Shown piece by piece: positions 1 through 59,046 of a stretch of DNA of 64,000 nt. Below the pieces are notes generated by a model that saw nothing but the letters and a program-made list of their open reading frames with translations, searched no databases and had not been told where the DNA came from. Each line of letters begins with the position of its first letter. Position 1 is the stretch's first letter. Both the position numbers and the translations under genes were made by a program. Source of the stretch: an uncultured Gammaproteobacteria bacterium (GTDB lineage Bacteria; Pseudomonadota; Gammaproteobacteria; Steroidobacterales; JBCBZW01); assembly GCA_965369325.1 (NCBI GenBank), contig CBDUQI010000003.1:3639-67638 (forward strand), read 5' to 3'.

Positions 1-2992
1 GGCGCTGAGCATTGGCTTCCCGGTGATGCTTAAGGCCAGTTGGGGCGGCGGCGGGCGCGGAATGCGTGTGCTGGAAAATGAGGCCGACCTGCGCAGCCAG
101 CTGTCGGTAGCACGGCGCGAATCGAAGTCCGCCTTTGGTAACGATGAGATGTATCTGGAGAAGCTGGTGCGTAACGCGCGCCACGTGGAGGTGCAGATCC
201 TAGGCGATACTCACGGCAATCTGGTGCATTTGTTCGAGCGTGACTGCTCGGTGCAGCGTCGACATCAAAAAGTGGTAGAGCGGGCACCTGCCCCGTACCT
301 GGATGCGGCCCAGCGTGAGCAGATTTGCGCTGCGGCCCTGCGCTTGGGGCGCGCTGTGGAGTACAGCAACGCAGGCACGGTCGAATTTCTGCAGGATGTG
401 GATACCGGCGAGTTCTACTTCATTGAGGTAAATCCGCGCGTGCAGGTGGAGCATACGGTCACTGAGCAGGTGACCGGCCTTGATATCGTCAAGTCGCAGA
501 TCCGTATTGCTGCCGGTGCGGTGATAGGCACCGACGAATCCGGCGTGCCGGCGCAGGCGGAGATCCGCTGCGAGGGGGCCGCGCTTCAGTGCCGGGTCAC
601 CACCGAGGACCCGCGCAACAACTTTATTCCGGATTACGGGCAGATAGTGGCCTATCGCAGCCCTTCAGGTCCCGGCATCCGCCTGGATGCGGGCACTGCC
701 TATTCAGGCGCGGTGATCACGCGCCACTACGACTCACTACTGGTGAAGGTGACTGCTGCGGGGCGGACCGCCCCTGAGGCGATCGACCGGATGCAGCGCG
801 CCTTGCGCGAGTTTCGGGTGCGTGGGGTGGAAACCAATCTGGCCTTTCTGCAAAAACTGATCAGCCATGAGGATTTTTTGGAGGGCGGATACAATACGCG
901 CTTCATCGATGACACACCTGATCTGATGCGGGTGGGCAAGAGCGATGTGGGTGCGACCAAGTTGCTGCAGTACGTGGGCGATGTGATTGTTAACCAGCAT
1001 CCGCAGGTAAAGGGACGGCGCTCACCGAAGATCCGGCGCGAACCCGTGGCGCCGGCATTGCCGGTCGCGCCGGTGGTGGATGGTCTGCGTCAGATGCTGC
1101 TGGCACAGGGCCCACAGGCGGTGGCTCAGTGGCTGAAGCAACAGCCGCACCCGCTGGTCACCGACACCACCTTTCGTGATGCACACCAGTCGCTGCTGGC
1201 CACACGCATGCGCACTATCGATATGCTGCGCATCGCCCCGCATTACGCGCGCCTGATGCCCACGCTGTTTTCAGTTGAGTCCTGGGGCGGAGCCACGTTT
1301 GATGTGGCTTACCGGTTTTTACGCGAGGACCCGTGGGAGCGACTGGCCGAGCTGTCCGCCCGGATGCCTAACCTGATGCAGCAGATGTTGCTGCGCGCGT
1401 CCAACGGCGTCGGCTACAAAAATTATCCTGACAACGTGGTGCGGTTTTTTGTCGAGCAGGCGGCAGATGCCGGTGTTGATGTGTTCCGCATTTTCGATTG
1501 CCTGAACTGGGCGCAGAACATGCGGGTGGCGATTGATGCTGTGGCCGCCACCGGCAAGATCGCCGAAGCTGCCATTTGCTACACCGGCGATTTGCTCAAC
1601 CCGCAACGCAGCAAGTACGACCTGGCGTACTACGTGGGCCTGGCGCGCGAGTTGGAGGATGCTGGCGCGCACATTCTGGGTATTAAGGATATGGCTGGCC
1701 TGCTTAAGCCTGCCTCCGCCCGCGTGCTGATCGCCGCTCTGCGCGATGAAATCTCCTTGCCGATTCATTTACACACCCACGATACCAGTGGCGCGGCGGC
1801 CGCCACCGTGCTGGCCGCGGCCGAGGCCGGCGTTGATGTGTTCGATGCAGCGATGGACTCAATGAGTGGGCTCACATCGCAGCCCAATATGGGCTCGATC
1901 GTATCGGCGCTGCAGTTTACCGAGCAGGATACGGGGCTGCAGCCAGATGTGATTCGGTTGCTGTCGGAGTACTGGGAGCAGGCGCGCGAGCAATACGCCG
2001 CGTTCGAGCCGGATATCCGCGCGGGCGCCTCGGAGGTGTACTTGCATGAAATGCCCGGCGGCCAGTTTACTAATCTGAAAGAGCAGGCTGCCTCACTGGG
2101 CATTGGCAGACGCTGGCCGGAAGTGGCTCGCGCGTACGCCGATGTTAACCAGATGTTTGGCGACATCGTGAAGGTCACACCGTCCTCCAAGGTGGTTGGC
2201 GACATGGCGTTGATGATGGTCACCTCGGGGACGAGCCGCGAGGACGTGTTGAACCCGCAGATGGAGATCGCGTTCCCGGAATCGGTGGTATCGCTGTTCG
2301 CCGGCGAATTGGGCCAACCGCCCGGCGGGTTCCCCAAGGCGCTGCAACGCAAAGTGTTGCGCGACCGGCCCGCCAGTGTGCAACGCCCGGGCAGTTTGCT
2401 GCCGCCGGTGGACTTGGATGCTGAACGAGCGAGTCTTAAGGGTGAACTGGAATCACCTAACGACCGGCAACTGGCCAGTCATCTGATGTATCCGAAGGTT
2501 TACGCCGAGTACCTGAGCCATCTAAGCGAATATGGTGATGTGGGCCGGTTGCCGAGCCATGTGTTTTTTTACGGCATGCAATCCGGCGAGGAGATCACTG
2601 TCGTGTTCGACGATGGCCGCCAAGTGATCGTACGCTATCTGACCGCCGCGGATGCGGATCCCGATGGTTTGAGCCGCCTGTTCTTCGAGGTGAACGGGCA
2701 GCCGATTTCGGTGCGTATCGCCGACCGCCAACTGGCCAGTTCCGTGGCACGGCGTGAGCAGGCAGACCCGGGTAACGCCGGGCATGTGGCCGCGCCTATG
2801 CCGGGCGTGATTGCCACGGTGTCGGTGGAGGCAGGGCAAAAAGTGAATCGAGGTGATCCGCTACTGAGTATCGAGGCGATGAAAATGGAAACCGTGGTCG
2901 CCGCAGATGTGGCTGGCACAGTGCGACGTGTCGTCGCGGCCTCCGGCACCCAGGTGGATGCTAAGGATTTGCTGGTCGAACTGGACGTATAG
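1..2992 (+). CDS. pyc: pyruvate carboxylase, single-chain type (5' end cut off by window edge)
   Basis: ORF 23..2992 has no stop upstream to the window edge. The translation shows the biotin-carboxylase ATP-grasp core (FIEVNPRVQVEHTVTE), the carboxyltransferase site (GIKDMAGLL, IHLHTHDTSG) and the C-terminal biotinyl-lysine motif (IEAMKMET). Confidence 0.93.
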   Translation, partial: ALSIGFPVMLKASWGGGGRGMRVLENEADLRSQLSVARRESKSAFGNDEMYLEKLVRNARHVEVQILGDTHGNLVHLFERDCSVQRRHQKVVERAPAPYLDAAQREQICAAALRLGRAVEYSNAGTVEFLQDVDTGEFYFIEVNPRVQVEHTVTEQVTGLDIVKSQIRIAAGAVIGTDESGVPAQAEIRCEGAALQCRVTTEDPRNNFIPDYGQIVAYRSPSGPGIRLDAGTAYSGAVITRHYDSLLVKVTAAGRTAPEAIDRMQRALREFRVRGVETNLAFLQKLISHEDFLEGGYNTRFIDDTPDLMRVGKSDVGATKLLQYVGDVIVNQHPQVKGRRSPKIRREPVAPALPVAPVVDGLRQMLLAQGPQAVAQWLKQQPHPLVTDTTFRDAHQSLLATRMRTIDMLRIAPHYARLMPTLFSVESWGGATFDVAYRFLREDPWERLAELSARMPNLMQQMLLRASNGVGYKNYPDNVVRFFVEQAADAGVDVFRIFDCLNWAQNMRVAIDAVAATGKIAEAAICYTGDLLNPQRSKYDLAYYVGLARELEDAGAHILGIKDMAGLLKPASARVLIAALRDEISLPIHLHTHDTSGAAAATVLAAAEAGVDVFDAAMDSMSGLTSQPNMGSIVSALQFTEQDTGLQPDVIRLLSEYWEQAREQYAAFEPDIRAGASEVYLHEMPGGQFTNLKEQAASLGIGRRWPEVARAYADVNQMFGDIVKVTPSSKVVGDMALMMVTSGTSREDVLNPQMEIAFPESVVSLFAGELGQPPGGFPKALQRKVLRDRPASVQRPGSLLPPVDLDAERASLKGELESPNDRQLASHLMYPKVYAEYLSHLSEYGDVGRLPSHVFFYGMQSGEEITVVFDDGRQVIVRYLTAADADPDGLSRLFFEVNGQPISVRIADRQLASSVARREQADPGNAGHVAAPMPGVIATVSVEAGQKVNRGDPLLSIEAMKMETVVAADVAGTVRRVVAASGTQVDAKDLLVELDV

Positions 2993-4254
2993 TGGTGGCG
3001 CTAAAACCAAGTCAGTTTGCGGATTCTGGGCTTGCCCCTTCGGGGCAAATCAAAATCGACTGGGTACGGCGTAATATGCCTATCCTAAATCAGATTAAGG
3101 CACGGTTCGTCGCGGAGCAGCCCTTTGCGGGCCTGAACGTGCTTTGCTGCCTGCACCTAGAAGCGAAGACGGCGTATCTGGCCCAGATACTGGCGGCGGG
3201 TGGCGCGCGGGTGGCCGTATGCGGCAGCAATGCACATTCCACCAAAGATGATGTGGCGGCGGCGCTGGCGACATCCGGCGTGCGTGTGTATGCGCATCAT
3301 GGGGCCAGCGATGCGCAAATGCACCAGTATATGAACGACGCGCTGGATATCGAGCCCAATATTATTATCGACGATGGTGGCGACATCGTGGAAATATTGC
3401 ACACCGAAAGGCGTGAGCTGCTGACGCAAATATGGGGCGCGTGCGAGGAGACGACCAGTGGCGTGGTGCGGGCGCAGGCGCGTGAGCAAGCTGGCGAGCT
3501 GGCTTTCCCTGTAGTGTTAATCAACGACGCGCGTTGTAAGTATCTGTTCGATAACTACCACGGCACCGGGCAGTCGGTGTGGGACGGTTTTATGCGGGCG
3601 ACCAATTTGTCGATATGTGGTCGTACGGTGGTGGTGATCGGTTACGGCTGGTGCGGTAAAGGGTGTGCCGACCGCGCGCGCGGCCTGGGCGCCCGCGTCA
3701 TTGTGTGCGAGGTGGATCCGGTCAGCGCGGTGGAGGCGCACTTACAGGGTTTTGAGGTGATGCCCCTGCGCGAGGCGGTAACTCATGGCGATGTGTTGCT
3801 AACGGTTACTGGCGGAAAACATGCGCTGGATGCCGCACACTTTCCGCTGATGAAAGATGGCGTTGTGTTAGCCAACGCCGGGCACTTTGCGCGAGAGATT
3901 AATCTGGGCGCGTTGCGTGAGCAGGCGGTCGCGGTGCAGGAACTGCGGGAAAATGTGCAGGGCTTTGAGATGTCGGATGGGCGCTGGCTCTATTTGCTGG
4001 GCAACGGTGGACTGGTGAACATCTCCTGCGCGGATGGACATCCGGCAGATATCATGGATACCAGTTTTGCGTTACAGGCCTTGTCGGCGCAGTATCTGGT
4101 ACGCCAGCGCGGCCAGTCGCGCGCGGGCACCGTGGTGGTGCCGGAGCAGATCGATCTGCAGGTGGCCAGTTTGCGGCTCAGTGGGCTGGGAGTTCAAATC
4201 GATACGCTCACGGAGCAGCAACGCGATTACCTGATTTGCGTACCTGACGCCTGA
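2992..4254 (+). CDS. ahcY: S-adenosyl-L-homocysteine hydrolase, short archaeal/Thermotoga-like type
   Basis: The GTG start overlaps the pyc TAG (TAGTG). Motifs present: HLEAKTAYL, GSNAHSTKDDVAAAL, IIDDGGD, CEETTSGV, NDARCKYLFDNYHGTGQS, Rossmann GYGWCGKGCA and GHFAREI. Length is 420 aa. Confidence 0.8.
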   Translation: MVALKPSQFADSGLAPSGQIKIDWVRRNMPILNQIKARFVAEQPFAGLNVLCCLHLEAKTAYLAQILAAGGARVAVCGSNAHSTKDDVAAALATSGVRVYAHHGASDAQMHQYMNDALDIEPNIIIDDGGDIVEILHTERRELLTQIWGACEETTSGVVRAQAREQAGELAFPVVLINDARCKYLFDNYHGTGQSVWDGFMRATNLSICGRTVVVIGYGWCGKGCADRARGLGARVIVCEVDPVSAVEAHLQGFEVMPLREAVTHGDVLLTVTGGKHALDAAHFPLMKDGVVLANAGHFAREINLGALREQAVAVQELRENVQGFEMSDGRWLYLLGNGGLVNISCADGHPADIMDTSFALQALSAQYLVRQRGQSRAGTVVVPEQIDLQVASLRLSGLGVQIDTLTEQQRDYLICVPDA

Positions 4255-4681
4255 TGGGCGAATTTTCGCTGAATTTCATGGTCAGACGGTTGATCCTGCC
4301 ATCGCGAACATAGTCCACGTCATCGGCAACCATTTTGATAATGCACAGGCCCATGCCGCCCTCGGGTAGTGCCTGGACATCGGTGCTGTCGAAGTCAAGT
4401 TCCGCCGGCGCTTGACGAAAATCGATCGGGTCCATGCCGCGCCCGTGGTCCTGAATCTGCAAGACAATTTTGTCCTGCTCAAAATGAAGCTTCACATCCA
4501 CCGTATCCTGAGTGTCATTAGGATAGCTGTGTTCGATGACATTGTTGAGCGCCTCGCCCATGGCGCTCTCCAAGATGCCCGTGTCCTCACCCAGTTTGTC
4601 CCCAACCAGCATTGCTACGCATCGACTTATGAGCCCGACGTGGTCGTACTTATTGGGGATGCTAAGTGTCAGCGTTTGCAT
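4208..4681 (-). CDS. RsbW/SpoIIAB-type serine protein kinase (anti-sigma regulatory factor family)
   Basis: 157 aa with N-box EALNNVIEH, G1 DHGRGMD and G2 GGMGLCIIK. It starts 12 nt after the stop of the upstream nucleotidyltransferase gene. Its last 47 nt overlap the ahcY 3' end convergently. Confidence 0.8.
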   Translation of the reverse strand: MQTLTLSIPNKYDHVGLISRCVAMLVGDKLGEDTGILESAMGEALNNVIEHSYPNDTQDTVDVKLHFEQDKIVLQIQDHGRGMDPIDFRQAPAELDFDSTDVQALPEGGMGLCIIKMVADDVDYVRDGRINRLTMKFSENSPIRRQVRKSGNRVAAP

Positions 4682-4693
4682 CTTCGGACCGCG

Positions 4694-5866
4694 TTACGCT
4701 GATTTTCTCACCATAGCAGCGTCACGCAATGCCCGCTGCCACGGATCCAGCGGATTTTCGCAGCGAGCGTCATCAATCAGCCACTGGCACTGTAGTTCCT
4801 TCAGATCCAGCGCAGATCCGTTGCGAGAGATTACATATTGGTCAATCAGCATTAGATCGCAAATCTCAGCAGTCTCCTGAATACGTTTGAAATCATCAAT
4901 GTGACAGCGCTCAATGCGTGCCCCGGATTCAATTACGCAATTACTGCCGATCGACGTGGGCCCGATAATGGTTGCACCGGGTTCAATTCGGGTACCGCTC
5001 CCGATGTAGACGGGCCCTTGAATGTTGACCGCATCCAGATCGACCCTGAGACTAATTCCACCGAATACGCCCGGCGCCAGCACCTGACCGGGGCGCTTGA
5101 AAGTACTGACCTCACCGCGCAGCAACCGTTCCATGCAGTGGAAGTACTCGGCAACAGAGCCGATGTCCAGCCAATTGAACTGCATCGGCAAGCCGTAGAG
5201 TGGGTGCCCTTGCTCGACCAGCATCGGGAGCAGCTCGCTGCCGATATCATAGTGCTGCCCGCCCGGGATGAGGTCGAGTACTTGCGGCTCAAACATGTAG
5301 ATGCCGGTATTGATGGTGGTGGAGACGGTTTCCTGCGGGCTGGGTTTATCCTGGGACTGCACAATGCGTCCTTCGACATCGGTTTTAACTACACCGTATC
5401 TGGATGCTTCGGATGGATCGACATCGCGCAAGACAATTGTGGCCACTGAGCCGCGGGCCTTGTGGAAGCGATACAGCTCCTCAATATCGAAGTCCAAATA
5501 GGCATCGCCGCACAGCACCATGAATGTATCATCGAAGAAGCCAGAGAAGTTCTGGATCTTCTTCATCCCGCCGGCGGATCCCAGCGCGTCTCCCTTGAGC
5601 TCATCACCCACCATGCTGCCTTCGAACGAGTATGAAAGATTAACCCCAAACCGCTCCCCATCACGAAAGTAGTTCTGGATCATCGGCGACATGTAGCTGG
5701 TGTTCACTACAATATCTTCCACGCCGAAATTTTGTAGATGCGCGATGATGGTTTCCATCACTGGTTTGCGTAGCAATGGAATCATCGGTTTGGGCATGGC
5801 GAGTGTGATTGGACGCATCCGCATGCCCTTTCCAGCGGCAAGTATCATAGCTTTCATACGATTCAT
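4694..5866 (-). CDS. sugar-1-phosphate nucleotidyltransferase with C-terminal left-handed beta-helix domain
   Basis: The N-terminus MKAMILAAGKGMRMRPIT..PKPM matches the GxGxRxxP nucleotidyltransferase signature. The C-terminal half has hexapeptide-like repeats (IGSGTRIEPGATIIGPTSIGSNCVIESGARI). The start may be ATG 5857 instead of 5866. Confidence 0.8.
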   Translation of the reverse strand: MNRMKAMILAAGKGMRMRPITLAMPKPMIPLLRKPVMETIIAHLQNFGVEDIVVNTSYMSPMIQNYFRDGERFGVNLSYSFEGSMVGDELKGDALGSAGGMKKIQNFSGFFDDTFMVLCGDAYLDFDIEELYRFHKARGSVATIVLRDVDPSEASRYGVVKTDVEGRIVQSQDKPSPQETVSTTINTGIYMFEPQVLDLIPGGQHYDIGSELLPMLVEQGHPLYGLPMQFNWLDIGSVAEYFHCMERLLRGEVSTFKRPGQVLAPGVFGGISLRVDLDAVNIQGPVYIGSGTRIEPGATIIGPTSIGSNCVIESGARIERCHIDDFKRIQETAEICDLMLIDQYVISRNGSALDLKELQCQWLIDDARCENPLDPWQRALRDAAMVRKSA

Positions 5867-5898
5867 CTGTTGTGATTGGCAGGGGTATGAAGTGGCTT

Positions 5899-6228
5899 TT
5901 AGGCCGCGAGGGCTCCTTCAACGGTGCCGTAGATCGAGAACACGTTGTTCATGCAAGTGAGTTCAAACACCGACATTACACACTCATTCAGGTTGCATAG
6001 CTTGATGCTGCCGGTGTGCCCGATGCTCTTCAGCACGGCGACAATTGCACCAAGACCGCTACTATCGATGAAATGCACGCTTGTCAGATCCAGTACAATC
6101 TGACGCTCACCGGCGTCGATGTAGTCCACCATGGCATCCTTGAAGTCGACCGCAATGGCGGCGTCTAGACGCTCGTCGTGAACGCTTACCACTAGAACAT
6201 CGTCAACCTTACGGTCTTGAATCAGCAT
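5899..6228 (-). CDS. STAS-domain anti-sigma-factor antagonist (SpoIIAA/RsbV family)
   Basis: 109 aa counted from the internal ATG at 6228, which is preceded by GGAGAA. It carries the conserved phosphorylatable-serine context LDLTSVHFIDSSGLGAIV. The longer ORF to 6345 has a non-homologous N-extension. Confidence 0.85.
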   Translation of the reverse strand: MLIQDRKVDDVLVVSVHDERLDAAIAVDFKDAMVDYIDAGERQIVLDLTSVHFIDSSGLGAIVAVLKSIGHTGSIKLCNLNECVMSVFELTCMNNVFSIYGTVEGALAA

Positions 6229-6391
6229 TTGTGTTCTCCACAGCGGTTGCAAAAAAAGAAGGTCTAGTTGGATGTCGGCGGCATTACAGTGCGCTTTAGC
6301 GCACAGTGTGACCCAGGTCGCACTGTTCAACGCAAAAAGGACCATGGACGACAGCGATCTCCTCTGCCTTGCGGTTTCAAGCGTGTGAACT

Positions 6392-8863
6392 CTAGGCGAC
6401 GTTGGTCTTCGAGCGATTTTTGCCGCTCAGGTGCCAGATTTGCGAGGCGTACTCCGCAATCGTGCGGTCGCTTGAGAACTTGCCGGTTCGCGCCACGTTC
6501 AATATTGCCCGCCGTGCCCACTCCTCCGGTTGGCGGTAGTCCTCGCTAACGGTATCTTGCACCCGCACATAGTCTTCAAAGTCAGCCAGGTGCATGTAGT
6601 AGTCGCCACCACTGGTCAGAAGATCGAAGATGGGTCGGAATAGGCCAGGATCGCCGGGCGCGAAGGTGTCGCCCGCCAAGCTGTCCAGTACGCGACGGAT
6701 GTCCGCGTTGCGCTCGTAGTATGCCCAAGGGTTGTAGCCGTCCTGGCGGAAAGCTTTTACTTGATCGCCCGTGAGACCGAAGATGTAGATGTTCTCATCA
6801 CCCACCTCTTCACGAATCTCAACGTTGGCGCCATCCAGCGTGCCCACAGTGAGTGCGCCGTTCAAGGCGAGCTTCATGTTGCCTGTGCCTGAGGCTTCAT
6901 ATCCAGCAGTGGATACCTGCTCGCTGACATCAGCCGCAGGAATGATCTTCTCTGCAGAGGACACTTTGTAGTCCGGGAAGAACACGACTCTTAGTTGATC
7001 ACGTGCTTCGGGCTCGCGCTCGATCGCCTCGCCCAGGCTGTTAATAAACTTGATAATCAGCTTGGCAATGTCGTAGCCCGGTGCGGCCTTGCCGGCGAAG
7101 ATGAAGGTGCGTGGCGTGTTCAATCGAGCGCCATCGTGTACCACGCGGTGGTACAGATGGGCGATATGCAGCGCGTTCAGAAGCTGCCGTTTGTACTCGT
7201 GAATCCGCTTAATTTGCACGTCGAAAAGAGTGCTGGGATCGACTTCAGTTTGGGTAACGCGCTTGATCTGTTGCGCCAGTGCCCGTTTGTTGGCCAGTTT
7301 AACCTGTTGGAAGGCGTGGATGAACTCAGGGTTGCCGGCCACCGCCTCAAGTTCGCGCAGCTCATCTAATTGAGTAATCCAGCCGTCGCCGATGTGCTCG
7401 GTAATAAGACTTGAAAGACCGGGGTTGCACAGAGCCAGCCAACGTCGTTGGGTGACGCCGTTGGTTTTGTTGCAGAACTTATCCGGCCACATCTGGTAGA
7501 AGTCCGGCACCAAATCTGTCTTGACCAGTTCGGTGTGCATCGCGGCAACGCCGTTAACTTTGTGGCTCCCGACAATTGACAGGTTAGCCATGTGCACCTG
7601 CCGATGCTCGCCTTCTTCGAGGATGGACATGCGCTGTAGTTTGCCCGGATCATTCGGGAACCGGTCCTCCACCTGCGCTAAGAAGCGCGCATTGATCTCG
7701 TAGATAATCTGGATGTGGCGGGGCAGAAGATACTCAACAAGCCCGACCGGCCATTTTTCCAGCGCTTCCGGCAGCAATGTGTGGTTGGTGTACGCCAGTG
7801 TACGTGTGGTGATGCTCCACGCCGCGTCCCAGCTAACGCTGTGCTCATCGACCAGAATCCGCATCAGCTCCGCAACCGCCATTGCAGGATGGGTATCGTT
7901 CAGCTGAATAGCCGCTCGGTCGGGGAGCTCGCTGACACGGTAACCCTTGGCCAGATGCTGACGCAGAATATCGCGGATCGCGCAGGCAACAAAAAAGTAC
8001 TCCTGGGTGAGGCGCAGCTCTTTGCCGGCCTCAGCGGCATCGGAAGGGTACAAAAGCTTGGAGACAGTCTCGGAGGAGATCTTCTGCTGCACCGCACGCA
8101 CATAGTCGCCAGAGTTGAAAATACTCATGTCAAATTCATCGGAGGAGCGGGCCGAGAACAGGCGCAGATAGTTTACCGTGCCGCCTCCGTAGCCGACGAT
8201 GGGCATGTCGTACGGCACGCCCACCAGAACATCCCAGTTAACCCATTGAGGCGTGTAGCTGCCGTGGGTGTCGTACCCGTGCTGGATGCGTCCGTGCAAA
8301 GGCACCACACAACTGTGTTCCACGCGTTCAATTTGCCAATGCGTGCCGTTGACCGTCCAATGGTCTGGCCGTTCGCGCTGGTAACCATTCACAAACGACT
8401 GTCTGAACAGGCCGTACTCGTAATTGATGCCGTATCCATACCCGGGATAACCGAGGGTGGCCAGCGAGTCCAAAAAGCATGCGGCTAGACGCCCAAGGCC
8501 ACCGTTGCCCAGCGCGGGATCCAGCTCGTTTTCCAACACATCGCTAAGTTGCCACCCGAGGCGATCACAAGCCTCTTCAAACAGGCCCAGCAAGCCGAGA
8601 TTGCACAAGTTATTATGCAGCAATCGCCCGATTAGGAACTCCAGCGACAAGTAGTAAACGGCCTTCTCACCTTGATTGCTGTGCGCCGTGTTCAGCAATC
8701 CGCTGAGGACGAATTCCCGCGCGCTCATGGTCACCGCCGCGGTGCAGTCGGTCAGGGTTGCCTCCGATGGGTACTTGCCCAGGCTGTAGCGCAGGTGGTA
8801 CTCGATTGAGTGCATGACTGACTTAACGTCTTTACGCGGCTGCAATCGGGTGTTTATCGCCAT
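6392..8863 (-). CDS. glgP: glycogen/maltodextrin phosphorylase
   Basis: 823 aa with the pyridoxal-phosphate lysine motif EASGTGNMKLALNGALTVGTLDGANVEI and typical phosphorylase blocks (LGNGGLGRLAACFLDS, RIHEYKRQLLN). Confidence 0.93.
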   Translation of the reverse strand: MAINTRLQPRKDVKSVMHSIEYHLRYSLGKYPSEATLTDCTAAVTMSAREFVLSGLLNTAHSNQGEKAVYYLSLEFLIGRLLHNNLCNLGLLGLFEEACDRLGWQLSDVLENELDPALGNGGLGRLAACFLDSLATLGYPGYGYGINYEYGLFRQSFVNGYQRERPDHWTVNGTHWQIERVEHSCVVPLHGRIQHGYDTHGSYTPQWVNWDVLVGVPYDMPIVGYGGGTVNYLRLFSARSSDEFDMSIFNSGDYVRAVQQKISSETVSKLLYPSDAAEAGKELRLTQEYFFVACAIRDILRQHLAKGYRVSELPDRAAIQLNDTHPAMAVAELMRILVDEHSVSWDAAWSITTRTLAYTNHTLLPEALEKWPVGLVEYLLPRHIQIIYEINARFLAQVEDRFPNDPGKLQRMSILEEGEHRQVHMANLSIVGSHKVNGVAAMHTELVKTDLVPDFYQMWPDKFCNKTNGVTQRRWLALCNPGLSSLITEHIGDGWITQLDELRELEAVAGNPEFIHAFQQVKLANKRALAQQIKRVTQTEVDPSTLFDVQIKRIHEYKRQLLNALHIAHLYHRVVHDGARLNTPRTFIFAGKAAPGYDIAKLIIKFINSLGEAIEREPEARDQLRVVFFPDYKVSSAEKIIPAADVSEQVSTAGYEASGTGNMKLALNGALTVGTLDGANVEIREEVGDENIYIFGLTGDQVKAFRQDGYNPWAYYERNADIRRVLDSLAGDTFAPGDPGLFRPIFDLLTSGGDYYMHLADFEDYVRVQDTVSEDYRQPEEWARRAILNVARTGKFSSDRTIAEYASQIWHLSGKNRSKTNVA

Positions 8864-19382: not shown

Positions 19383-22300
19383 TTAACCGCTTGCCCGGCG
19401 CGGTTGATAGTACGGGTGCCCCGGAGCGTGCAGTTCGCTGGTTAGCGAGTCGGGCGGCTGGGCTAACGCTGAGAGCCGTCGCTCATCCGGGAATAGGGGC
19501 ACGGAGATCTCGATGCGTGTGCCCATGTTCGGCTCAGAGTAAATATTAAACGTACCGCCGATGAGCGAGATCCGCTCGCGGCTGCTGAACAGCCCAAAGC
19601 CGTGCTCGTTGTCCGGGCTGTGCACTTCGGTCGGTGCGAAACCCAAGCCTTTGTCCGCAACGCTTATCATCAAGTGCTGCGTGGTTTCTGACAGCGTGAC
19701 GCTTACCTCATCCACACCAGCGTGTTTGGTGACGTTGTGCAAAAGCTCTCGGATGGTGCGATAGAGCACTACCCTTAGCTGAGGGCTCAAGATACGCTCG
19801 CTGCCTTCATCCAGAATGTTGCAGGTAAGCCCGTATTGTTCCTGCATTCGCTCACCCAGCCAGCCCAACGCGGGCGCCAGCCCCAGGTCATAGAGCATGG
19901 GCGGGCTGAGCTCCAAGGTGATTGATCGAGTGGCGGCGATGGCCTCGTTCAGCAGATCCTGCAATTCATTAAGCGACTTGTGATTAGGGTCGCGAATTTT
20001 CGGGCGTAATGTCTCCAGCCGCATCTTGCACACCGCTAGCAGCTGGGCAACGCCATCGTGCAGATCTTCTGCCGTGCTACGCCGCGCCCTTTCCTCTGCG
20101 TGCGATAACTCAAATGCCATTGCACGGAGTTTTTTCTGGTACACCAGCAAATTACGCTGGTTGCGCTCGCGCTGCGCAATTTGCCGGTGTAACTCGCTCA
20201 CCTTAAACCGCTGGATCAACGCGCTGATCGCAAGTAGCAGCCCAATGGCGTAAATGGCGTAGGCCCACCAGGAGCGGAACCAAGGTGGCACAATGCGTAG
20301 GGAGAACACCGCGGGGGGTGTTTCGTGTAGGGCATCGCTGCGTGCCCGCACCTGAAACTGATAGTATCCTTCGGTTAACAATGGGTACTCACGCATCGTC
20401 TCAGTGGACCAGCCAGACCAGCGTTGATCCAGGCCCAGCATGCGCGTTTGATATTGCACCTTGTCCTGTGCAGCGTGGTGCGGTAGGGAGTAGTTAAAGC
20501 GCAATGCGCGTTGAGCAAACGGCAGCCGCAACTGATTGGAATGGGTGGTTTGTGTGCCGCGATGCAGCGTTTGCCCCTCAATAACACTCACGCTGGCGAG
20601 CACCACGTTCGCAGGCAGATTCAGATGATTGTCGAATGCGCGCAGTTCTCGTCTGACCAGGCGACCATCGAGTGTGCCGGCCCACATCGCCCTGTCATCG
20701 GCGACTAGCGCCGAGTAACGAATGCTCTGAACGCGTTGGAGAGGGAAATGTAGCTCGTACGGATTGCCGCGACGATTGAGTGCGGCCACCTGCCCGTCGC
20801 GGTACTGAAACCAGAGGTTTCCGTTGGCATCCACTTGCGGGTGCCCGGCGGCGGTGGTCGGCAGGTTTGCATCAGCTTCGAAACTGTTGTGCGCCGGATG
20901 GAATTCAAACAATCCGTCGGATGATCCAACCACCAGTCGGCCATCCCAGACCGCTGTTTGCAGGTCGGCGCTGACAAGACCCTGCGCCACTCCGTAGGAT
21001 TCAATGACCGGCTTGCTGAGCACCCCGTCAGGAAAACGCAACCGTTGCAATTTGTCCTGCTGATTACTAAACGGGGGTTGGAGCCATACCTCCTCGTTAA
21101 GCAGGGTAATCGCGCGCACCTCAGCGTAAGTCCCGGGAATGCGTGCAGCCCGGTACCAATTGCCGTCTGTGCGACGGTAGATCTGCAGCCCGTTGCGCAG
21201 AGTGCCAACGAACAAAGAGTTGGTCCCGGGTGACCAGGCCAGCGACATAGTGTGCTGGTTATGCAGCTTCTGCAGCTGCCCGTCGGGCATGATGGCAAAC
21301 AACCCCATTTGAGTGGCGGCGATCAGATCGGGCCCCGCGAATTCTAGATCCCAGGCGAACTGGCGAATCGAGGGGTCCGGACGGTGGAAACGCGCGGTGC
21401 TGATCATGCGCTGCCCCTCGGCAGAGACGAACAAGCCCTTGGTCGTGGCGACATACAGCCGGTTGTTATACGAGGCGACATCCAGCAGTCCGCCGTCGAG
21501 CCCGTCATCTATCCCGAAAATCTGTAGCGGCGAGCTGATATCTATGCGTGCGATACCGTAGATTAGTGGCAGCCAGAGCCCTCCCTGAGCATCGATAAAC
21601 CCTCGGTTAGAGACGCCGTTGTCGGGCAAGCCAATCGATTTGTCGAAACGCCGTAGCAACTTGCCGTTGGCATCAACTACCACGGCGCCGCCACTACTGG
21701 TGGACAGCAGCAGGTTGCCGTCGGGCAGACGCATCAGACCTGAGCCATGCTCGCGTTTGGCGAAGACGCTGGCGGGCGTCTCCCAGGCACTGGTACCCTC
21801 CGGCCCCACCTGGTACAGCCCCTGGTGGCGGCTTAACAACAGCAGTTGGCCGTCGTCCCATTCGATCATATCCACCATGCCGGTGGCTGGCAGAAGATCA
21901 GGGGACAGCTCGGAGACATGGTCGCCGTCAATGTAACGCAGGGGATCACCGCTGCGCGCTACAAACAAACGCTTGTTTACCAGAGCGGTGGCGTAAGCGT
22001 AGGCCGGCAGGTTCTCATCGTCCTCGAAAAACCACCAGGACAATTGCTCCTGATTGGCGGCCGGTGGGTCGGGCGTCCAACGAAACAGATATTCGCGGTG
22101 CTGAAAAAACACACCCTCATCGGTGATGACAATCCGCCGGATCTGGCCAAAGTCTCGATGCTCCGGAGGGACTAGGCGGACCAGGCTGTGGAAGACGTGC
22201 TCGCCGGTGTGGTCGGGTGCCAGATAGCCGAATTCCCCCTCCGCACCGACGTATATATTGCCGTTCTCACCAGCCGCGACCGAAAAAACTTTGAGCCCTT

Positions 22301-22577
22301 CCACCGGTATCTGGCGCCAGTTGGTGCCATCAAAGGACTGTATACCGGAGGAATTGGCGATGTAGATAACGCCATCAGGGCCTTGGGATACATCCCAGTT
22401 CTGCGAGTGCCCGTCGTACTCCAGCGGGGTAAATGTGCGCAGCGGGAGACGGCCAAGAATAGAAGGATCGGCATGGGCAAGGCTGCCGAACGCGCAATAC
22501 GCCCAGGCAATTGCGGCGCACAATAGCATCGCAAAGCTGTTCGTCGATCGCGTTGACTGGGGTAGACAAGTGGCCAT
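19383..22577 (-). CDS. sensor histidine kinase with periplasmic two-component-regulator propeller repeats and Y_Y_Y domain (HisKA_3/NarL-class)
   Basis: The roughly 750-aa N-terminal region has repeated beta-propeller blades, then a Y_Y_Y-like block (VQYQTRMLGLDQRWSGW...GYYQFQVRA) and one TM (WWAYAIYAIGLLLAISALI). The H-box is DLHDGVAQLL and a HATPase_c domain follows (DKGLGF, HGFGL). No response regulator is adjacent. Confidence 0.85.
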   Translation of the reverse strand: MATCLPQSTRSTNSFAMLLCAAIAWAYCAFGSLAHADPSILGRLPLRTFTPLEYDGHSQNWDVSQGPDGVIYIANSSGIQSFDGTNWRQIPVEGLKVFSVAAGENGNIYVGAEGEFGYLAPDHTGEHVFHSLVRLVPPEHRDFGQIRRIVITDEGVFFQHREYLFRWTPDPPAANQEQLSWWFFEDDENLPAYAYATALVNKRLFVARSGDPLRYIDGDHVSELSPDLLPATGMVDMIEWDDGQLLLLSRHQGLYQVGPEGTSAWETPASVFAKREHGSGLMRLPDGNLLLSTSSGGAVVVDANGKLLRRFDKSIGLPDNGVSNRGFIDAQGGLWLPLIYGIARIDISSPLQIFGIDDGLDGGLLDVASYNNRLYVATTKGLFVSAEGQRMISTARFHRPDPSIRQFAWDLEFAGPDLIAATQMGLFAIMPDGQLQKLHNQHTMSLAWSPGTNSLFVGTLRNGLQIYRRTDGNWYRAARIPGTYAEVRAITLLNEEVWLQPPFSNQQDKLQRLRFPDGVLSKPVIESYGVAQGLVSADLQTAVWDGRLVVGSSDGLFEFHPAHNSFEADANLPTTAAGHPQVDANGNLWFQYRDGQVAALNRRGNPYELHFPLQRVQSIRYSALVADDRAMWAGTLDGRLVRRELRAFDNHLNLPANVVLASVSVIEGQTLHRGTQTTHSNQLRLPFAQRALRFNYSLPHHAAQDKVQYQTRMLGLDQRWSGWSTETMREYPLLTEGYYQFQVRARSDALHETPPAVFSLRIVPPWFRSWWAYAIYAIGLLLAISALIQRFKVSELHRQIAQRERNQRNLLVYQKKLRAMAFELSHAEERARRSTAEDLHDGVAQLLAVCKMRLETLRPKIRDPNHKSLNELQDLLNEAIAATRSITLELSPPMLYDLGLAPALGWLGERMQEQYGLTCNILDEGSERILSPQLRVVLYRTIRELLHNVTKHAGVDEVSVTLSETTQHLMISVADKGLGFAPTEVHSPDNEHGFGLFSSRERISLIGGTFNIYSEPNMGTRIEISVPLFPDERRLSALAQPPDSLTSELHAPGHPYYQPRRASG

Positions 22578-33770: not shown

Positions 33771-34397
33771 CTATAGGCCCGCGGCGTTTGCCAGTTCGCG
33801 CCGCACGCGTGCCGGAATCTCATCCAGCTCGTCCACAAAATCTCGCGCTTCTTCGCGGGTGGCGCCGCGCACGATCACCAGACCGCCTTCCTGCTGATGA
33901 TCGGCATCCGCGTGAATACGCACAGCGGGCGAGGCTTTATGGGCCTTGGCAGTGTGCCCGGCATCATTCTCACCGAATGAGAAACTGAAGTTGTTCTCGC
34001 CGTCGCTGCCGCCGACCAGCACGATGCTGTTGCCGATGACGATCCTCACCTCTTCACCGTCCTCACCTTGGGCCTGGATGTCCAGCCCGTCGGTTGCGCC
34101 TTTGTCCACCTCCACCACGGCCACTGTTTGATTTTCCAACTGCTGGTCCAGGTGACGAAGGGCTTTTTCTGCGGCGCGGTCCGAGAGCAGTGCCGCGTCC
34201 TCCTCACGCCCGTTGATGCCGTAGACATCATCGTCCACGTCAATCAGGGTCACCCGCTCGCCCGTGTCTTCGTTGTGGTAGGTCCACAGTGTGTAAGGGC
34301 CGACAGCGTCGTCAACGTTCAGCTCGTCTGCCAGCAATGGCGTACTGAGCAAGCCCAGCAGTGCGCAGCCGGTGGCAAAGGATGAGAGTGAGGGCAT
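33771..34397 (-). CDS. acidic secreted/periplasmic protein of unknown function
   Basis: ATG 34397 is preceded by GGAG. The signal peptide is MPSLSSFATGCALLGLLSTPLLA. The mature part is very D/E-rich. The longer ORF to 34541 lacks coding character. Confidence 0.6.
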   Translation of the reverse strand: MPSLSSFATGCALLGLLSTPLLADELNVDDAVGPYTLWTYHNEDTGERVTLIDVDDDVYGINGREEDAALLSDRAAEKALRHLDQQLENQTVAVVEVDKGATDGLDIQAQGEDGEEVRIVIGNSIVLVGGSDGENNFSFSFGENDAGHTAKAHKASPAVRIHADADHQQEGGLVIVRGATREEARDFVDELDEIPARVRRELANAAGL

Positions 34398-34732
34398 AGG
34401 AGCTCCACGTAAGTGACAAACAATAGCGGTACAGTACACGGCTCTGTGGAGAATTCCGATTCCTCGGCCAGTTAGGTATCGGGCCGATGGCGTTGCGTGC
34501 GCGCCACGGCACGGTGCTTGGCCAAGCGCATTGAACCTCAAACGTACTAAGGTGATCGCCGCGTATCTAAAGCGCGTTCGCCGCGGGCCTTACGCCTGCA
34601 CTCACGTGGCCCGGGGCTGGATAGTTTAGTTGGAAACCGATCCGGCGAGCGCTGGTAGGGGCGCTTGAAGTAAGCTGAGTACCAAACGAACGGAATCGCG
34701 CAGTGTCTTGCATTGAACCGGGGAGGGACTCA

Positions 34733-36469
34733 GTGGCGCAGCAGGGGCAGGGGCAGAGTTGGCCGCAAGAGCTGGTCAAGCAGGTTGCCTATGATGTGTG
34801 TTTTGATTTTGTCAGCTACAACTCCGAGTTCCGATCGATTACCCAGCGCGCAAAATTCCGCTTCGAGCGGCGGGAATGGGCGCAAAGCCAACTGGACGCG
34901 GTGGAACGGATAGAGCTGTGGGACAAGTGCGTCAACGCCACCGTGGCCAGAATGCGCGAAGAGCTGGGGCCGGCGCCGCCGGTGCCCGCGTTCTGGCAGG
35001 AAGTAAAAGCGCGTTATGCGCAAATCGTCCACAGTTACCGGGACGTTGAGTTTACCCGCACCTACTTTAACTCGGTGGTCCGACGGATGTTTGACCGTGC
35101 GGATGCCAGCACCGCTTGTTTGTTTAACGACGACCGCGCCAGGCCTATGGCAGCGCTGGCTCAATCGCTGCAACTGAACAGCTACACCCGCGACGGCCTG
35201 CTGACCCACTTGTTTACCATACTGCTGGCCGACTACTCATTTGCGGTGACCTACCGGGATATCGGCGCGAGTGGTGAGCAGCTGGCGCGGGCGGTTGCCC
35301 GGCGATTCTCGAGCGAGGATGAGGGGCGCGTCAGCCGGGTGGACATGATTCGCTCGGTATTTTTTCGGGATACGCGCGCCTATCTAGTGGGTCGGGTGCG
35401 GCTGGGGCGACGCAGCGAGCCGATTATCATCGCGCTGAAGAATACCGAGGACGGTATCGTGCTGGATGCGGTGGTTATGGATGAGTATCACATCAGCACG
35501 ATTTTCGGCTTTGCGCGCTCTTACTTCCACGTGGATGAAGAGAACGTGACCAGTCTGGCAGTGTTTCTCAAATCAATGTTGCCGCTAAAAAACCCGATGG
35601 AACTGTTTACCATGCTGGGGCGCGCCAAGCAGGCCAAAACCCAACGCTATCGCGACATCATGCATCGCTTGCAAGTGACCACCGAGAAATTCGAAGATGT
35701 TGCGCTGGATCGCGGGATGGTCATGATCGTGTTTACGCTGCCCTCCTACGATGGTGTGCTGAAGGTTATCCGTGATCAGTTCGCTTATCCTAAAACAACC
35801 GTGCGCGAAGACGTGCTGGAAAAATACCATCTGGTGTTCACTCGCGATCGGGTGGGGCGCTTGGTGGAGGCACAGGAGTTCAAGCGACTGAAGTTCCCGC
35901 GTGAGCGTTTCCACCCCGGGCTGCTGGATGAATTGGTAAAAGAGGCCGGCAATACCGTGAGTGTTGAGCCGGACGGCTCCGTGCTCATTCGCCATGCCTA
36001 CGTGGAACGGCGGCTGATTCCGCTTAATCAGTATCTGCGCGAGGCCAGCAAAGAGCAGGCCATTGCGGCAGTGCTTGAGTACGGGCAGGCCATTCGCGAT
36101 CTGGCTGCTGCGAATATTTTCCCGGGCGATCTGTTGCTAAAGAACTTTGGTGTCAGCGGACATGGCCGAGTGATTTTCTACGATTATGATGAGTTGTGTC
36201 TAGTTACCGAGTGCAATTTTCGCGACATGGTGCAGCCGCAGTACGAGGAGGATGAGATGCGTGGCGGGGAGTGGTTTTACGTGGCGGAAAACGATATTTT
36301 CCCAGAGCAGTTTAGTTCTTTCCTAGGCTTCGACGGGCCATTGCGCGAGGCTTTCATGGCTGCCCACTCAGACTTGCTTACCGCGCACTGGTGGCGGCAG
36401 ATAAAAACCCGTCACGAGCAGGGCGAGATCTTCGAGCTGGTACCATATACACCCCAGCAGTTCGCGTAA
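34733..36469 (+). CDS. aceK: isocitrate dehydrogenase kinase/phosphatase
   Basis: Family blocks FPGDLLLKNFGVSGHGRVIFYDYDELC and NDIFPEQF. GTG 34733 lies 4 nt after GGGAGGGA and gives 578 aa. Confidence 0.92.
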   Translation: MAQQGQGQSWPQELVKQVAYDVCFDFVSYNSEFRSITQRAKFRFERREWAQSQLDAVERIELWDKCVNATVARMREELGPAPPVPAFWQEVKARYAQIVHSYRDVEFTRTYFNSVVRRMFDRADASTACLFNDDRARPMAALAQSLQLNSYTRDGLLTHLFTILLADYSFAVTYRDIGASGEQLARAVARRFSSEDEGRVSRVDMIRSVFFRDTRAYLVGRVRLGRRSEPIIIALKNTEDGIVLDAVVMDEYHISTIFGFARSYFHVDEENVTSLAVFLKSMLPLKNPMELFTMLGRAKQAKTQRYRDIMHRLQVTTEKFEDVALDRGMVMIVFTLPSYDGVLKVIRDQFAYPKTTVREDVLEKYHLVFTRDRVGRLVEAQEFKRLKFPRERFHPGLLDELVKEAGNTVSVEPDGSVLIRHAYVERRLIPLNQYLREASKEQAIAAVLEYGQAIRDLAAANIFPGDLLLKNFGVSGHGRVIFYDYDELCLVTECNFRDMVQPQYEEDEMRGGEWFYVAENDIFPEQFSSFLGFDGPLREAFMAAHSDLLTAHWWRQIKTRHEQGEIFELVPYTPQQFA

Positions 36470-56882: not shown

Positions 56883-56886
56883 GATG

Positions 56887-59036: not shown

Positions 59037-59046
59037 CGCCGGCTCC

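Follow-up and report, generated by a model that had tools for sequence, protein, structure and literature searches.

A STAS-kinase gene pair around a CugP-type UDP-glucose pyrophosphorylase gene in an uncultured gammaproteobacterium: candidate control of UDP-glucose supply by a phospho-switch with no sigma factor

In the HptB-HsbR system, input passes through an Hpt phosphorelay to a receiver-PP2C. In Anabaena PCC 7120, All4160, a STAS-fused Bac_transf sugar transferase, is under direct control, being switched off via an RsbW-like kinase and on via the receiver-SpoIIE phosphatase HenR, and HenR/Alr3423/All4160-type regulation was held by its authors to be specific to cyanobacteria (Harada, Matsuoka, Ehira 2026, PMC13555669). 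A first-pass annotation of the locus considered here had taken partner-switching control of an NDP-sugar or storage-glucan step for an undescribed mechanism; for the mechanism class this does not hold, as the STAS-fused glycosyltransferase of that study is under such control, and it is for a UDP-glucose-making enzyme that this switch arrangement has not been described before. CugP is known from cyanobacteria as a UDP-glucose pyrophosphorylase distinct from GalU (Maeda et al. 2014, as cited in PMC8227023).

The locus was analyzed in a 64-kb window (the whole stretch of DNA considered, and the visible part of the genome), where four genes run in one direction on the minus strand in the order glgP, STAS, nucleotidyltransferase (NTase) and kinase, with spacers of 163, 32 and 12 nt (Table 1). 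The ORF list and our reading of the sequence gave the same coordinates, direction and spacers as the first-pass annotation, and its assignments of all four proteins were backed by Pfam and NCBIfam profile-HMM searches. Nothing above background was found in the 163-nt spacer for promoters, terminators or Rfam families; at its position, comparison with relatives (L161, L171, and L172) places a glgX/amylase gene, a gene for a ~300-aa protein without Pfam match, and a receiver-PP2C gene. The kinase gene begins 12 nt past the NTase stop codon in the same reading frame, and its 3' end shares 47 nt with a convergent AdoHcyase-like ORF. We consider the chances about even that this locus represents a reduced version of a module widespread in proteobacteria, whose partner-switch-type phospho-switch would serve UDP-glucose supply with no sigma factor involved.

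Table 1 Features of the glgP-STAS-cugP-kinase locus (window coordinates)
Feature	Position	Strand	Description	Basis
glgP	6392..8863	minus	823 aa, glycogen/alpha-glucan phosphorylase	Pfam, TIGR02093
glgP-STAS spacer	6229..6391	minus	163 nt	sequence read
STAS protein	5899..6228 (ORF 5899-6345)	minus	109 aa, anti-sigma-antagonist type	Pfam, TIGR00377, PDB
cugP (NTase)	4694..5866	minus	390 aa, UTP--glucose-1-phosphate uridylyltransferase	Pfam, PDB 8x7s
kinase	4208..4681	minus	157 aa, RsbW/SpoIIAB-type GHKL serine kinase	Pfam, NCBIfam, PDB

The STAS protein, read from ATG 6228, which a GGAG ribosome-binding site precedes by 7 nt, matches Pfam STAS (1.9e-16) and TIGR00377 (62 bits, cut-off 53) as well as TM1442, SpoIIAA, and RsbV in the PDB. 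Its phosphoserine context FIDSSGLG is intact, as previously described, and aligns with the DSSGLG of SpoIIAA, by which Ser56 is the predicted phosphorylatable serine of the single-domain anti-sigma-antagonist type; the DSSG serine is kept in 20 of 20 cugP-linked STAS proteins. The kinase matches Pfam HATPase_c_2 (1.2e-21), with RsbW and SpoIIAB as best NCBIfam similarities (both under their equivalog cut-offs) and also among its PDB matches (RsbW 6m36 at 1.5e-8). Its N-box (E43..N47..H51), G1 (DHGRG, residues 78-82, DxGxG), and G2 (GGMGL, residues 108-112, GxGL) are complete, as had been noticed earlier, and the ATP-binding boxes are conserved in all 21 cugP-linked kinases. The closest homologues of the kinase (49% identity) and of the STAS protein (54%) are paired in loci L167-169 without an NTase gene, thus the linkage of switch and NTase is not universal.

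GlgP is assigned by Pfam Phosphorylase (E = 0) and TIGR02093 (1132.7 bits, cut-off 552.9), and is 69% identical to the glgP product of the closest syntenic locus (L161); its product, Glc-1-P, is the substrate of the nucleotidyltransferase encoded downstream. The latter combines Pfam NTP_transferase (4.5e-49) with Hexapep (left-handed beta-helix, LbH), matches PDB 8x7s, a UTP--glucose-1-phosphate uridylyltransferase, at E = 7e-126 over residues 1-367 (next-best PDB match GDP-mannose pyrophosphorylase, at only 1e-34), and shares 50-52% identity with a protein of ~387 aa that is widespread in cyanobacteria, including Prochlorococcus. By homology it is a CugP-type UDP-glucose pyrophosphorylase, and its identification as a storage-glucan enzyme was rejected on the 8x7s match. 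Of the two steps first proposed as the target, an NDP-sugar or a storage-glucan step, the former was therefore retained and the latter abandoned: the step under putative control would provide UDP-glucose to the synthesis of cellulose, beta-glucan, trehalose or EPS and not of storage glucan. The family start MKAMILAAGKG places the likely true start at ATG 5857, giving 387 aa instead of 390, while the protein of the public record has 376 aa, which cuts off this conserved N-terminal motif.

In 23 loci, cugP directly adjoins a STAS gene, a kinase gene or both; carriers include Thiothrix, Sphaerotilus, Ferrimonas, Chromatiales, and Zetaproteobacteria, and the genes come in three orders (STAS-NTase-kinase, NTase-STAS-kinase, and NTase-kinase-STAS), so that the synteny of the trio, on which the first-pass annotation had staked its reading, was found in relatives. 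Several of these loci are closely related (L162-164, L004/L066, L107/L111) and are thus not independent; they represent about 15 distinct lineages, and the recurrence of the arrangement in 22 further loci makes it more than chance. In the sampled closest long-contig NTase homologues, kinase and PP2C genes lie beside the NTase gene in 6 of 6 cases, and a STAS gene too in 5 of 6. A neighbor-joining tree of the 20 linked CugPs taken in places 16 of them in one clade. Linkage of glgP to the module was seen in 9 of the 23 loci only, and when starting from glgP homologues, two of three sampled led into the same STAS-CugP-kinase module.

The only non-signaling gene present throughout the module loci is cugP, while its other neighbors vary (BcsQ/BcsAB cellulose synthase, GT2 + DUF3131, OtsA/OtsB, inorganic pyrophosphatase, Wzx/GT4); the flanking cellulose synthase, GT2 + DUF3131, OtsA/B, and pyrophosphatase are UDP-glucose consumers or helpers. 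These neighborhoods bear on the alternative that the STAS-kinase pair has its target encoded elsewhere (a sigma factor, a diguanylate cyclase or a neighboring glucan synthase) and that cugP is co-transcribed cargo. Such a target is consistent with the NTase-free pairs formed by the closest kinase and STAS homologues, with the GGDEF and cellulose-synthase genes near the relatives' loci, with the S. meliloti partner switch that acts on a diguanylate cyclase and beta-glucan (Baena 2019, as cited in PMC13438883), and with a view limited to 64 kb of the genome. However, cugP stays constant within or beside the switch genes in all three orders as Bcs, GT2 + DUF3131, OtsAB, and Wzx/GT4 come and go, no sigma factor is encoded in the eight Pfam-annotated relative neighborhoods, and STAS-NTase fusions (below) point to a direct relationship; we regard this alternative as unlikely.

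The earlier statement that no sigma factor accompanies the pair stands for these eight neighborhoods and for the window, where a Pfam sweep of 30 further ORFs found neither sigma-factor nor SpoIIE/PP2C domains (the remaining ORFs of the 45-ORF non-overlapping set were assigned from translations only). The companion statement on the phosphatase is correct for the window but not in general: a receiver-PP2C (receiver-SpoIIE) gene lies in the cluster in 17 of the 20 loci with enough upstream sequence, the three exceptions being the window, L172, and L096. With no PP2C in the window, STAS would stay phosphorylated for good under an active kinase if the genome had no phosphatase gene in another place, which speaks against a working switch. 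Genes for sensor phosphorelays (H-NOX or MHYT kinase, Hpt) lie near the relatives' modules.

Given the syntenic trio, the missing sigma factor, the linkage to glgP and the STAS-NTase fusions, protein-level control of the sugar-nucleotide step is the most economical reading, and a partner-switch-like phospho-switch probably acts post-translationally on UDP-glucose synthesis for polysaccharide. In this mechanism, Glc-1-P freed from glycogen by GlgP would be converted with UTP to UDP-glucose by CugP, which unphosphorylated STAS, the effector, would bind and either activate or de-repress. The kinase, using ATP, would phosphorylate Ser56 and turn the effector off, and a PP2C phosphatase would turn it on again; in relatives, the receiver domain of this PP2C would take its input from a histidine-kinase/Hpt phosphorelay of the H-NOX or MHYT kind, while a PP2C of the window's genome, if existing at all, would have to be encoded beyond the window.

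Alternatively, the kinase itself could bind and inhibit CugP in place of a sigma factor, with unphosphorylated STAS serving as antagonist only, which competes for the kinase and frees CugP. This is the canonical partner-switch logic, in line with the RsbW and SpoIIAB similarities, with a kinase gene directly after cugP in 12 loci (by the 12-nt spacer in the window), and with two loci (L166 and L076) that have kinase and CugP but no adjacent STAS. Since a further locus (L001) has STAS and CugP together and the kinase 4 kb away, adjacency cannot tell which partner touches CugP. A kinase with two binding partners fits poorly with its being the least conserved component (mean identity 27%, compared with 39% for STAS, which is more conserved in 94% of locus pairs), and SypA, HsbA, and SiaC are STAS-like effectors in non-sigma systems. 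Among the top 150 NTase-family representatives, no kinase-NTase fusion was found, whereas in 13, each of ~495 aa, NTase and LbH are preceded by an N-terminal extension of ~118 aa, and Pfam detects STAS in 6 of these (E ≤ 1e-5). The canonical serine is never kept in these fused domains, hence the fusions support STAS-NTase contact, not phospho-control. Because of the fusions, the higher conservation of STAS, and the precedent of the STAS-like effector All4160 (PMC13555669), the effector acting on CugP is probably the STAS protein, and sequestration by the kinase seems improbable.

No docking site is evident on the switch-linked CugPs, as they lack additional domains and can be told from cyanobacterial CugPs by just five clade-specific positions. 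At none of these five is a Ser or Thr kept throughout, as expected of a dedicated phospho-site, which argues against direct phosphorylation of CugP or GlgP by the kinase with STAS as a competing pseudo-substrate. Although the ATP-binding motifs are complete and eukaryotic glycogen phosphorylase is under phosphorylation control, RsbW/SpoIIAB-type kinases are known to phosphorylate STAS partners only and glgP occurs in just 9 of 23 loci, making this very unlikely.

Compared with HenR/Alr3423/All4160, the window locus has in common an RsbW-like serine kinase and a STAS with a phosphorylatable serine, and its relatives also the receiver-SpoIIE phosphatase. In Anabaena the output is a polysaccharide-pathway enzyme and not a sigma factor, as is proposed for the window locus. 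However, STAS is fused to the enzyme in Anabaena and is a separate protein here, the enzyme is a Bac_transf sugar transferase there and a CugP-type UDP-glucose pyrophosphorylase, one pathway step upstream, here; the former system is cyanobacterial and has HenR, while the CugP-STAS-kinase module is proteobacterial and the window is without a phosphatase gene. Cyanobacterial CugP shares with the window protein ~50% identity along the full length, the NTP_transferase + LbH architecture and a size of ~387 aa, but its gene stands alone, with neither STAS nor kinase gene in ~60 loci, whereas the proteobacterial clade, including the window's, sits in a STAS/kinase/PP2C module.

The DSSG STAS antagonist and the GHKL kinase are clearly homologous to their counterparts in RsbU/RsbV/RsbW and SpoIIE/SpoIIAA/SpoIIAB, and most relatives have a PP2C partner as well. 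In contrast to these systems, neither the window nor any annotated relative co-encodes a sigma factor, a metabolic enzyme gene lies inside the module, and the relatives' phosphatase bears a response-regulator receiver domain. SypA/SypE (Vibrio fischeri) and HptB-HsbR-HsbA (Pseudomonas aeruginosa) are STAS phospho-switches with non-sigma outputs in polysaccharide production and biofilm (see PMC10120452 and PMC6482189). Kinase, receiver, and PP2C share one protein in SypE and HsbR, unlike the stand-alone 157-aa kinase of the window; HsbA targets FlgM and a cyclase, and neither the SypA nor the HsbA system is known to be linked to a nucleotide-sugar enzyme. In SiaABCD (P. aeruginosa) and BgrU/V/W (S. 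meliloti), a PP2C/kinase pair acts on a small switch protein, and post-translational control of an enzyme by this protein governs exopolysaccharide or beta-glucan output (see PMC8457831 and PMC7647112; Baena 2019, as cited in PMC13438883). The enzyme controlled there is a diguanylate cyclase, whereas the candidate in the window is the UDP-glucose-forming enzyme itself.

The feature consists of four co-directional minus-strand ORFs in the order glgP, STAS, nucleotidyltransferase (NTase) and kinase, with spacers of 163, 32 and 12 nt, the 32-nt spacer placing the STAS gene upstream of the NTase gene; in this respect the ORF coordinates (see the table) agree with the first-pass annotation. GlgP was matched over its full length and above the curated cut-off, as expected for a member of the phosphorylase family, and its homologues at ~60% identity are spread over too many phyla to place the genome taxonomically; the surA-pdxA-rsmA-apaH order at the end of the window hints at Gammaproteobacteria. 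In a PDB sequence search the STAS protein matched TM1442, SpoIIAA and RsbV, and its FIDSSGLG segment aligned on the DSSGLG of SpoIIAA, i.e., it is a single-domain antagonist with the phosphoserine context intact, as had been claimed; the DSSG serine is kept in 20/20 linked STAS proteins (those from loci where STAS and/or kinase genes adjoin the NTase gene).

Coordinates of the four genes and of other features in the window
Feature	Window position	Strand	Assignment and remarks
GlgP, glycogen/alpha-glucan phosphorylase (GT35), 823 aa	6392-8863	minus	PF00343 E=0, profile positions 3-713 of 713; TIGR02093 1132.7 bits, cut-off 552.9 (Pfam, NCBIfam)
STAS ORF	5899-6345	minus	109-aa protein from ATG 6228, preceded by GGAG; PF01740 1.9e-16; TIGR00377 62.2 bits, cut-off 53.45
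Nucleotidyltransferase (CugP-type), 390 aa	4694-5866	minus	NTP_transferase 4.5e-49 and C-terminal hexapeptide left-handed beta-helix (Pfam)
RsbW/SpoIIAB-type kinase, 157 aa, single domain	4208-4681	minus	HATPase_c_2 1.2e-21
S-adenosylhomocysteine-hydrolase-like ORF	2992-4254		convergent with the kinase ORF
Two very large sensors	19383-22577, 42107-45430		1107 aa and 1064 aa
PKD-domain protein, 1764 aa	22907-28201		
Five ORFs of 133-652 aa	28264-32343, 33771-34541		no Pfam match at E ≤ 0.001
AceK, isocitrate dehydrogenase kinase/phosphatase	34703-36469		
GGDEF-EAL protein	40123-41886		
Kynurenine-pathway cluster	55494-59562		upstream of apaH-rsmA-pdxA-surA

The kinase is most similar to RsbW and SpoIIAB among the NCBIfam models and matched RsbW (6m36) and SpoIIAB in the PDB sequence search, but it scores under the NCBIfam equivalog cut-offs and is thus not an orthologue of RsbW itself. 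Its N, G1 and G2 boxes (E43..N47..H51, D78xG80xG82 in DHGRG, and G109xG111L in GGMGL) are complete, as noted in the first-pass annotation, and 21/21 linked kinases retain their ATP-binding boxes. The kinase carries a basic C-terminal tail of 15-20 aa that is missing from most homologues, and the 3' end of its ORF overlaps the S-adenosylhomocysteine-hydrolase-like ORF by 47 nt (window 4208-4254). Counts of promoters and terminators between window positions 3900 and 9300 were at or under shuffle expectation, and no Rfam match was found at E ≤ 1 between 3900 and 9400. A reading of the three smaller proteins as anti-phage defence was rejected, as PADLOC gave no defence assignment for any of them.

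The NTase aligned over residues 1-367 with PDB 8x7s, deposited as a UTP--glucose-1-phosphate uridylyltransferase, at E=7e-126, and the next-best PDB matches were GDP-mannose pyrophosphorylases at only 1e-34. It is 50-52% identical to a ~387-aa protein that occurs across cyanobacteria, and a search with one genome per species returned a few proteobacteria and, at 48-52% identity, ~60 cyanobacterial loci, Prochlorococcus among them. This protein is CugP, known in cyanobacteria from a 2014 study as referenced in PMC8227023, and the assignment relies on 8x7s together with citations in other papers. The window enzyme has the CugP architecture and size and the N-terminal nucleotide-binding motif LAAGKGxRxRP, and G12, G14, R16, K26 and the G120-D121 pair are invariant in a 25-sequence alignment; it reaches no NCBIfam equivalog model. 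Judging from the 8x7s match and the cyanobacterial relatives, its product is most likely UDP-glucose, not ADP-glucose, and a specificity for UTP and Glc-1-P would follow from homology. With glgP followed by cugP, the genes are arranged along a path that leads from glycogen via Glc-1-P to UDP-glucose. The gene and its domains were thus as first described, but the length of 390 aa was not upheld, since the family begins with MKAMILAAGKG and the protein is therefore probably 387 aa long, starting at 5857. The public record of the contig (79,137 bp) gives the enzyme as 376 aa, which cuts off this conserved motif.

In order to examine whether the arrangement is conserved, the ORFs of 173 loci were called and searched with iterated profiles, for which the window proteins and Pfam-annotated neighbours served as seeds. 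Synteny of the STAS-NTase-kinase trio in relatives was borne out: STAS and/or small kinase genes adjoin cugP in 23 loci (window included), in three gene orders (STAS-NTase-kinase, NTase-STAS-kinase and NTase-kinase-STAS) with one variant (STAS-kinase-PP2C-ManC-NTase, where PP2C denotes a SpoIIE-type phosphatase). They include Thiothrix (loci L004 and L066), a Chromatiales MAG (L067), Sphaerotilus (L069), Ferrimonas (L071), a Zetaproteobacterium (L076), a MAG labelled Acidobacteriaceae (L001) and many metagenome contigs. As L162-164, L004/L066 and L107/L111 are close relatives, the 23 loci are not all independent and correspond to roughly 15 distinct lineages. Two samples were picked independently of gene context: among the six closest NTase homologues on long contigs, kinase and PP2C genes lie next to the NTase gene in all six and a STAS gene in five, and the same module was reached from 2/3 glgP homologues sampled. 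Neither a STAS nor a kinase gene was found near cugP in the ~60 cyanobacterial loci, and in a crude neighbour-joining tree 16 of the 20 linked CugPs included sit in one 17-leaf clade.

In L167-169 (e.g., L168:9544-10450), the closest homologues of the window kinase and STAS protein, at 49% and 54% identity, respectively, are encoded side by side without an NTase gene; the context is unrelated, with SIR2 and amine-oxidase-like genes alongside, and no PP2C or sigma gene occurs within 10 kb. Such a pair would be compatible with the STAS protein and kinase acting on an unlinked target, a reading that we consider unlikely for the window; CugP is the sole non-signalling gene common to all examined linked contexts, and the switch is probably dedicated functionally to CugP and UDP-glucose supply.

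The first-pass annotation had stressed the lack of both a phosphatase and a sigma factor. For the window this holds, with no SpoIIE/PP2C or sigma domain detected by Pfam in the four genes and 30 further ORFs (the remaining ORFs of the 45-ORF non-overlapping set were assigned from their translations by reading only). The absence of a phosphatase does not extend to most relatives: when the 20 loci with 2.9 kb or more of sequence ahead of cugP are considered, 17 clusters encode a SpoIIE/PP2C catalytic domain, usually on a separate protein of ~400 aa that also has a response-regulator receiver domain and whose gene lies directly upstream. The exceptions are the window, L172 (glgP-amylase-hypothetical-STAS-NTase-kinase) and L096, whose kinase domain is part of a fusion with PAS-HisKA-HATPase. 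No sigma factor was found in eight Pfam-annotated related neighbourhoods.

Cellulose, beta-glucans, trehalose, osmoregulated glucans and many exopolysaccharides are all made from UDP-glucose; cellulose synthase and OtsA consume it, and pyrophosphatase draws the UDP-glucose pyrophosphorylase (UGPase) reaction forward. Genes of such pathways occur among the neighbours in the linked loci. Linkage of glgP to the trio was confirmed in 9/23 loci, and further neighbours are glgX or amylase genes, inorganic pyrophosphatase (L001, L162-164), BcsQ with BcsA/B cellulose synthase genes (L162-164), OtsA/OtsB with glucokinase and a GH15 enzyme (L165), Wzx/GT4 exopolysaccharide genes (L166, L067, L107), and a GH2-GH9-GT2-DUF3131 set (L004, L069, L071, L161, L165, L171, L172). 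This last set, with a cellulose-synthase-like GT2 and one to three DUF3131 genes, follows the module at L004:13788-16948, L071:11636-16329 and L069:11374-14950 and lies downstream of the kinase gene in L161 and L165, often with OpgC encoded on the far side, upstream of glgP. The set has the look of a beta-glucan locus not yet characterised; the titles and abstracts of papers mentioning DUF3131 give no function for this domain. In seven linked loci (L161:7533-8429, L171:10544-11497, L172:12222-13124, and L069, L071, L165 and L004) the gene of a conserved ~300-aa protein without Pfam match separates glgP/glgX from the PP2C or STAS gene. This protein, which the window lacks, may belong to the module as a component not described before.

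Candidate inputs were also found among the neighbours. In Thiothrix (L004:5876-8178) and the Chromatiales MAG (L067:4908-7182), genes for H-NOX (haem NO-binding) and a hybrid histidine kinase, joined in L004 by an Hpt gene, are transcribed divergently from the receiver-PP2C/STAS/cugP/kinase operon, which suggests that NO or O2 is sensed as an input. The H-NOX set is replaced in L162-164 by an MHYT-PAS hybrid kinase, Hpt and a receiver-GGDEF protein. The window copy is a minimal version of the module, without phosphatase, sensor and consumer genes.

Elsewhere in the window, AceK provides a second example of post-translational control of central carbon metabolism. One of the two very large sensors (1107 aa) combines Reg_prop propeller repeats and a Y_Y_Y domain with a GGDEF output, and the other (1064 aa), for which no Reg_prop match was reported, pairs a Y_Y_Y domain with a HisKA_3 histidine kinase output; together with the GGDEF-EAL protein they indicate dense c-di-GMP signalling in the window. 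The 1764-aa protein combines PKD domains with a segment of dockerin-like or thrombospondin type, and its long C-terminal part is made up of ~190-aa repeats with the motif SSSPTGF(E/D)FDGG. The five ORFs without Pfam match are consecutive or nearby, and several start with hydrophobic, signal-peptide-like N-termini. The kynurenine-pathway cluster encodes kynurenine 3-monooxygenase-like, kynureninase-like, cyclase/formamidase-family (Pfam Cyclase) and 3-hydroxyanthranilate dioxygenase-like proteins, assigned, except for the cyclase, from reading the translations only.

As L166 and L076 hold only kinase and CugP genes, and L001 has STAS and CugP with the kinase 4 kb off, adjacency does not decide which partner contacts the enzyme. 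A HMMER search with the NTase against 1.84 billion representatives yielded, among the best 150 matches listed, 13 NTase-family proteins of ~495 aa in which the NTase match begins at ~residue 118 (P0269, P0282, P0325, P0347, P0359, P0402 and seven more; see also L173:450-1943). The N-terminal extensions were STAS domains at Pfam E ≤ 1e-5 in 6/11 tested, matched more weakly and under the gathering score in 4/11 and gave no match in 1/11, and the fused STAS extensions align over their full length with the stand-alone proteins. These fusions belong to a sister subfamily at 33-39% identity, and their canonical phosphoserine column is never Ser (F, E, H, L, R, Y, D, Q, A or K), so they argue for a STAS-NTase contact and not for phospho-control; the signal to which the fused domains respond may thus come from elsewhere than an RsbW-type kinase. 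Across loci, mean identities are 53% for the NTase, 39% for STAS, 34% for PP2C and 27% for the kinase, and in 94% of locus pairs the identity is higher for STAS than for the kinase.

The fusions, their STAS-type extensions and the conservation of STAS over the kinase favour STAS as the contact partner, and we tentatively regard it as the direct effector on CugP, an assignment that might well turn out otherwise. Sequestration of CugP by the kinase would suit the loci that hold these two genes only, yet we judge it improbable, and no kinase-NTase fusion was present among the best 150 NTase-family matches listed. Pairwise-distance correlations were 0.69 for NTase and kinase and 0.65 for NTase and STAS, values in which co-evolution and shared ancestry are not separable. 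A kinase with intact ATP-binding boxes could also phosphorylate CugP or GlgP directly, which seems very improbable. As for a docking site, linked CugPs have no extra domain and no insertion relative to the cyanobacterial enzymes, and their five conservative clade-specific positions are uninformative.

With STAS as the preferred effector, GlgP would supply Glc-1-P, from which CugP would make UDP-glucose; unphosphorylated STAS would bind and activate (or de-repress) CugP, the kinase would turn STAS off by phosphorylating Ser56, and PP2C, presumably under phosphorelay control in relatives and unlinked or absent in this genome, would restore it. Should the genome have no PP2C at all, the window copy may be a switch that is locked or in decay. 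This scheme is built on the observed protein identities, intact motifs, synteny and neighbourhood content. More broadly, and with somewhat less than even confidence, we propose that a proteobacterial module of receiver-PP2C, STAS and RsbW-like kinase adopted CugP as its output instead of a sigma factor, with a gas-sensing (H-NOX or MHYT) phosphorelay steering glycogen-derived Glc-1-P into UDP-glucose for cellulose, beta-glucan or trehalose at the protein level. To our knowledge, little has been described of how bacteria adjust their UDP-glucose supply post-translationally. If the enzyme that forms UDP-glucose has a phospho-switch of its own, control would set in one level above the activation of glucan synthases by c-di-GMP, which is well studied. 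The switch recurs in several proteobacterial orders, often with H-NOX or MHYT sensor kinases wired to it. Cultured carriers exist (Thiothrix, Sphaerotilus, Ferrimonas) and only three to four small soluble proteins are involved, which opens the hypothesis to direct tests.

With the RsbV/RsbW and SpoIIAA/SpoIIAB partner-switching systems the window shares a STAS antagonist with DSSG and a GHKL serine kinase, but not the co-encoded PP2C/SpoIIE phosphatase and sigma-factor target. Partner switches with non-sigma outputs are known (SypA/E, HsbA/R, SiaABCD, BgrUVW). SypE-like proteins unite kinase, receiver and PP2C in one polypeptide, whereas the window kinase is single-domain and the receiver-PP2C of relatives is separate. 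The first-pass claim that the mechanism is not a described one stands only for CugP or UGPase, for which no literature was found that links either to STAS, RsbW-type kinases, anti-sigma factors or partner switching; an enzyme-directed case exists in Anabaena, where All4160, a sugar transferase with a fused STAS domain, is under the control of the RsbW-like kinase Alr3423 and the receiver-SpoIIE phosphatase HenR via Ser74, phosphorylation inactivating the enzyme, and where the authors deemed such regulation specific to cyanobacteria (PMC13555669). In that system STAS is fused to the carbohydrate enzyme, whereas in the window it is a separate gene. The new features here are nucleotide-sugar synthesis as the target enzyme class, the proteobacterial distribution and the stand-alone STAS protein. 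If the proposed control is true, no partner switch before it would have been shown to govern a nucleotide-sugar pool, the cyanobacterial mechanism would have a counterpart in proteobacteria, and enzyme-directed STAS switching would not be confined to cyanobacteria.
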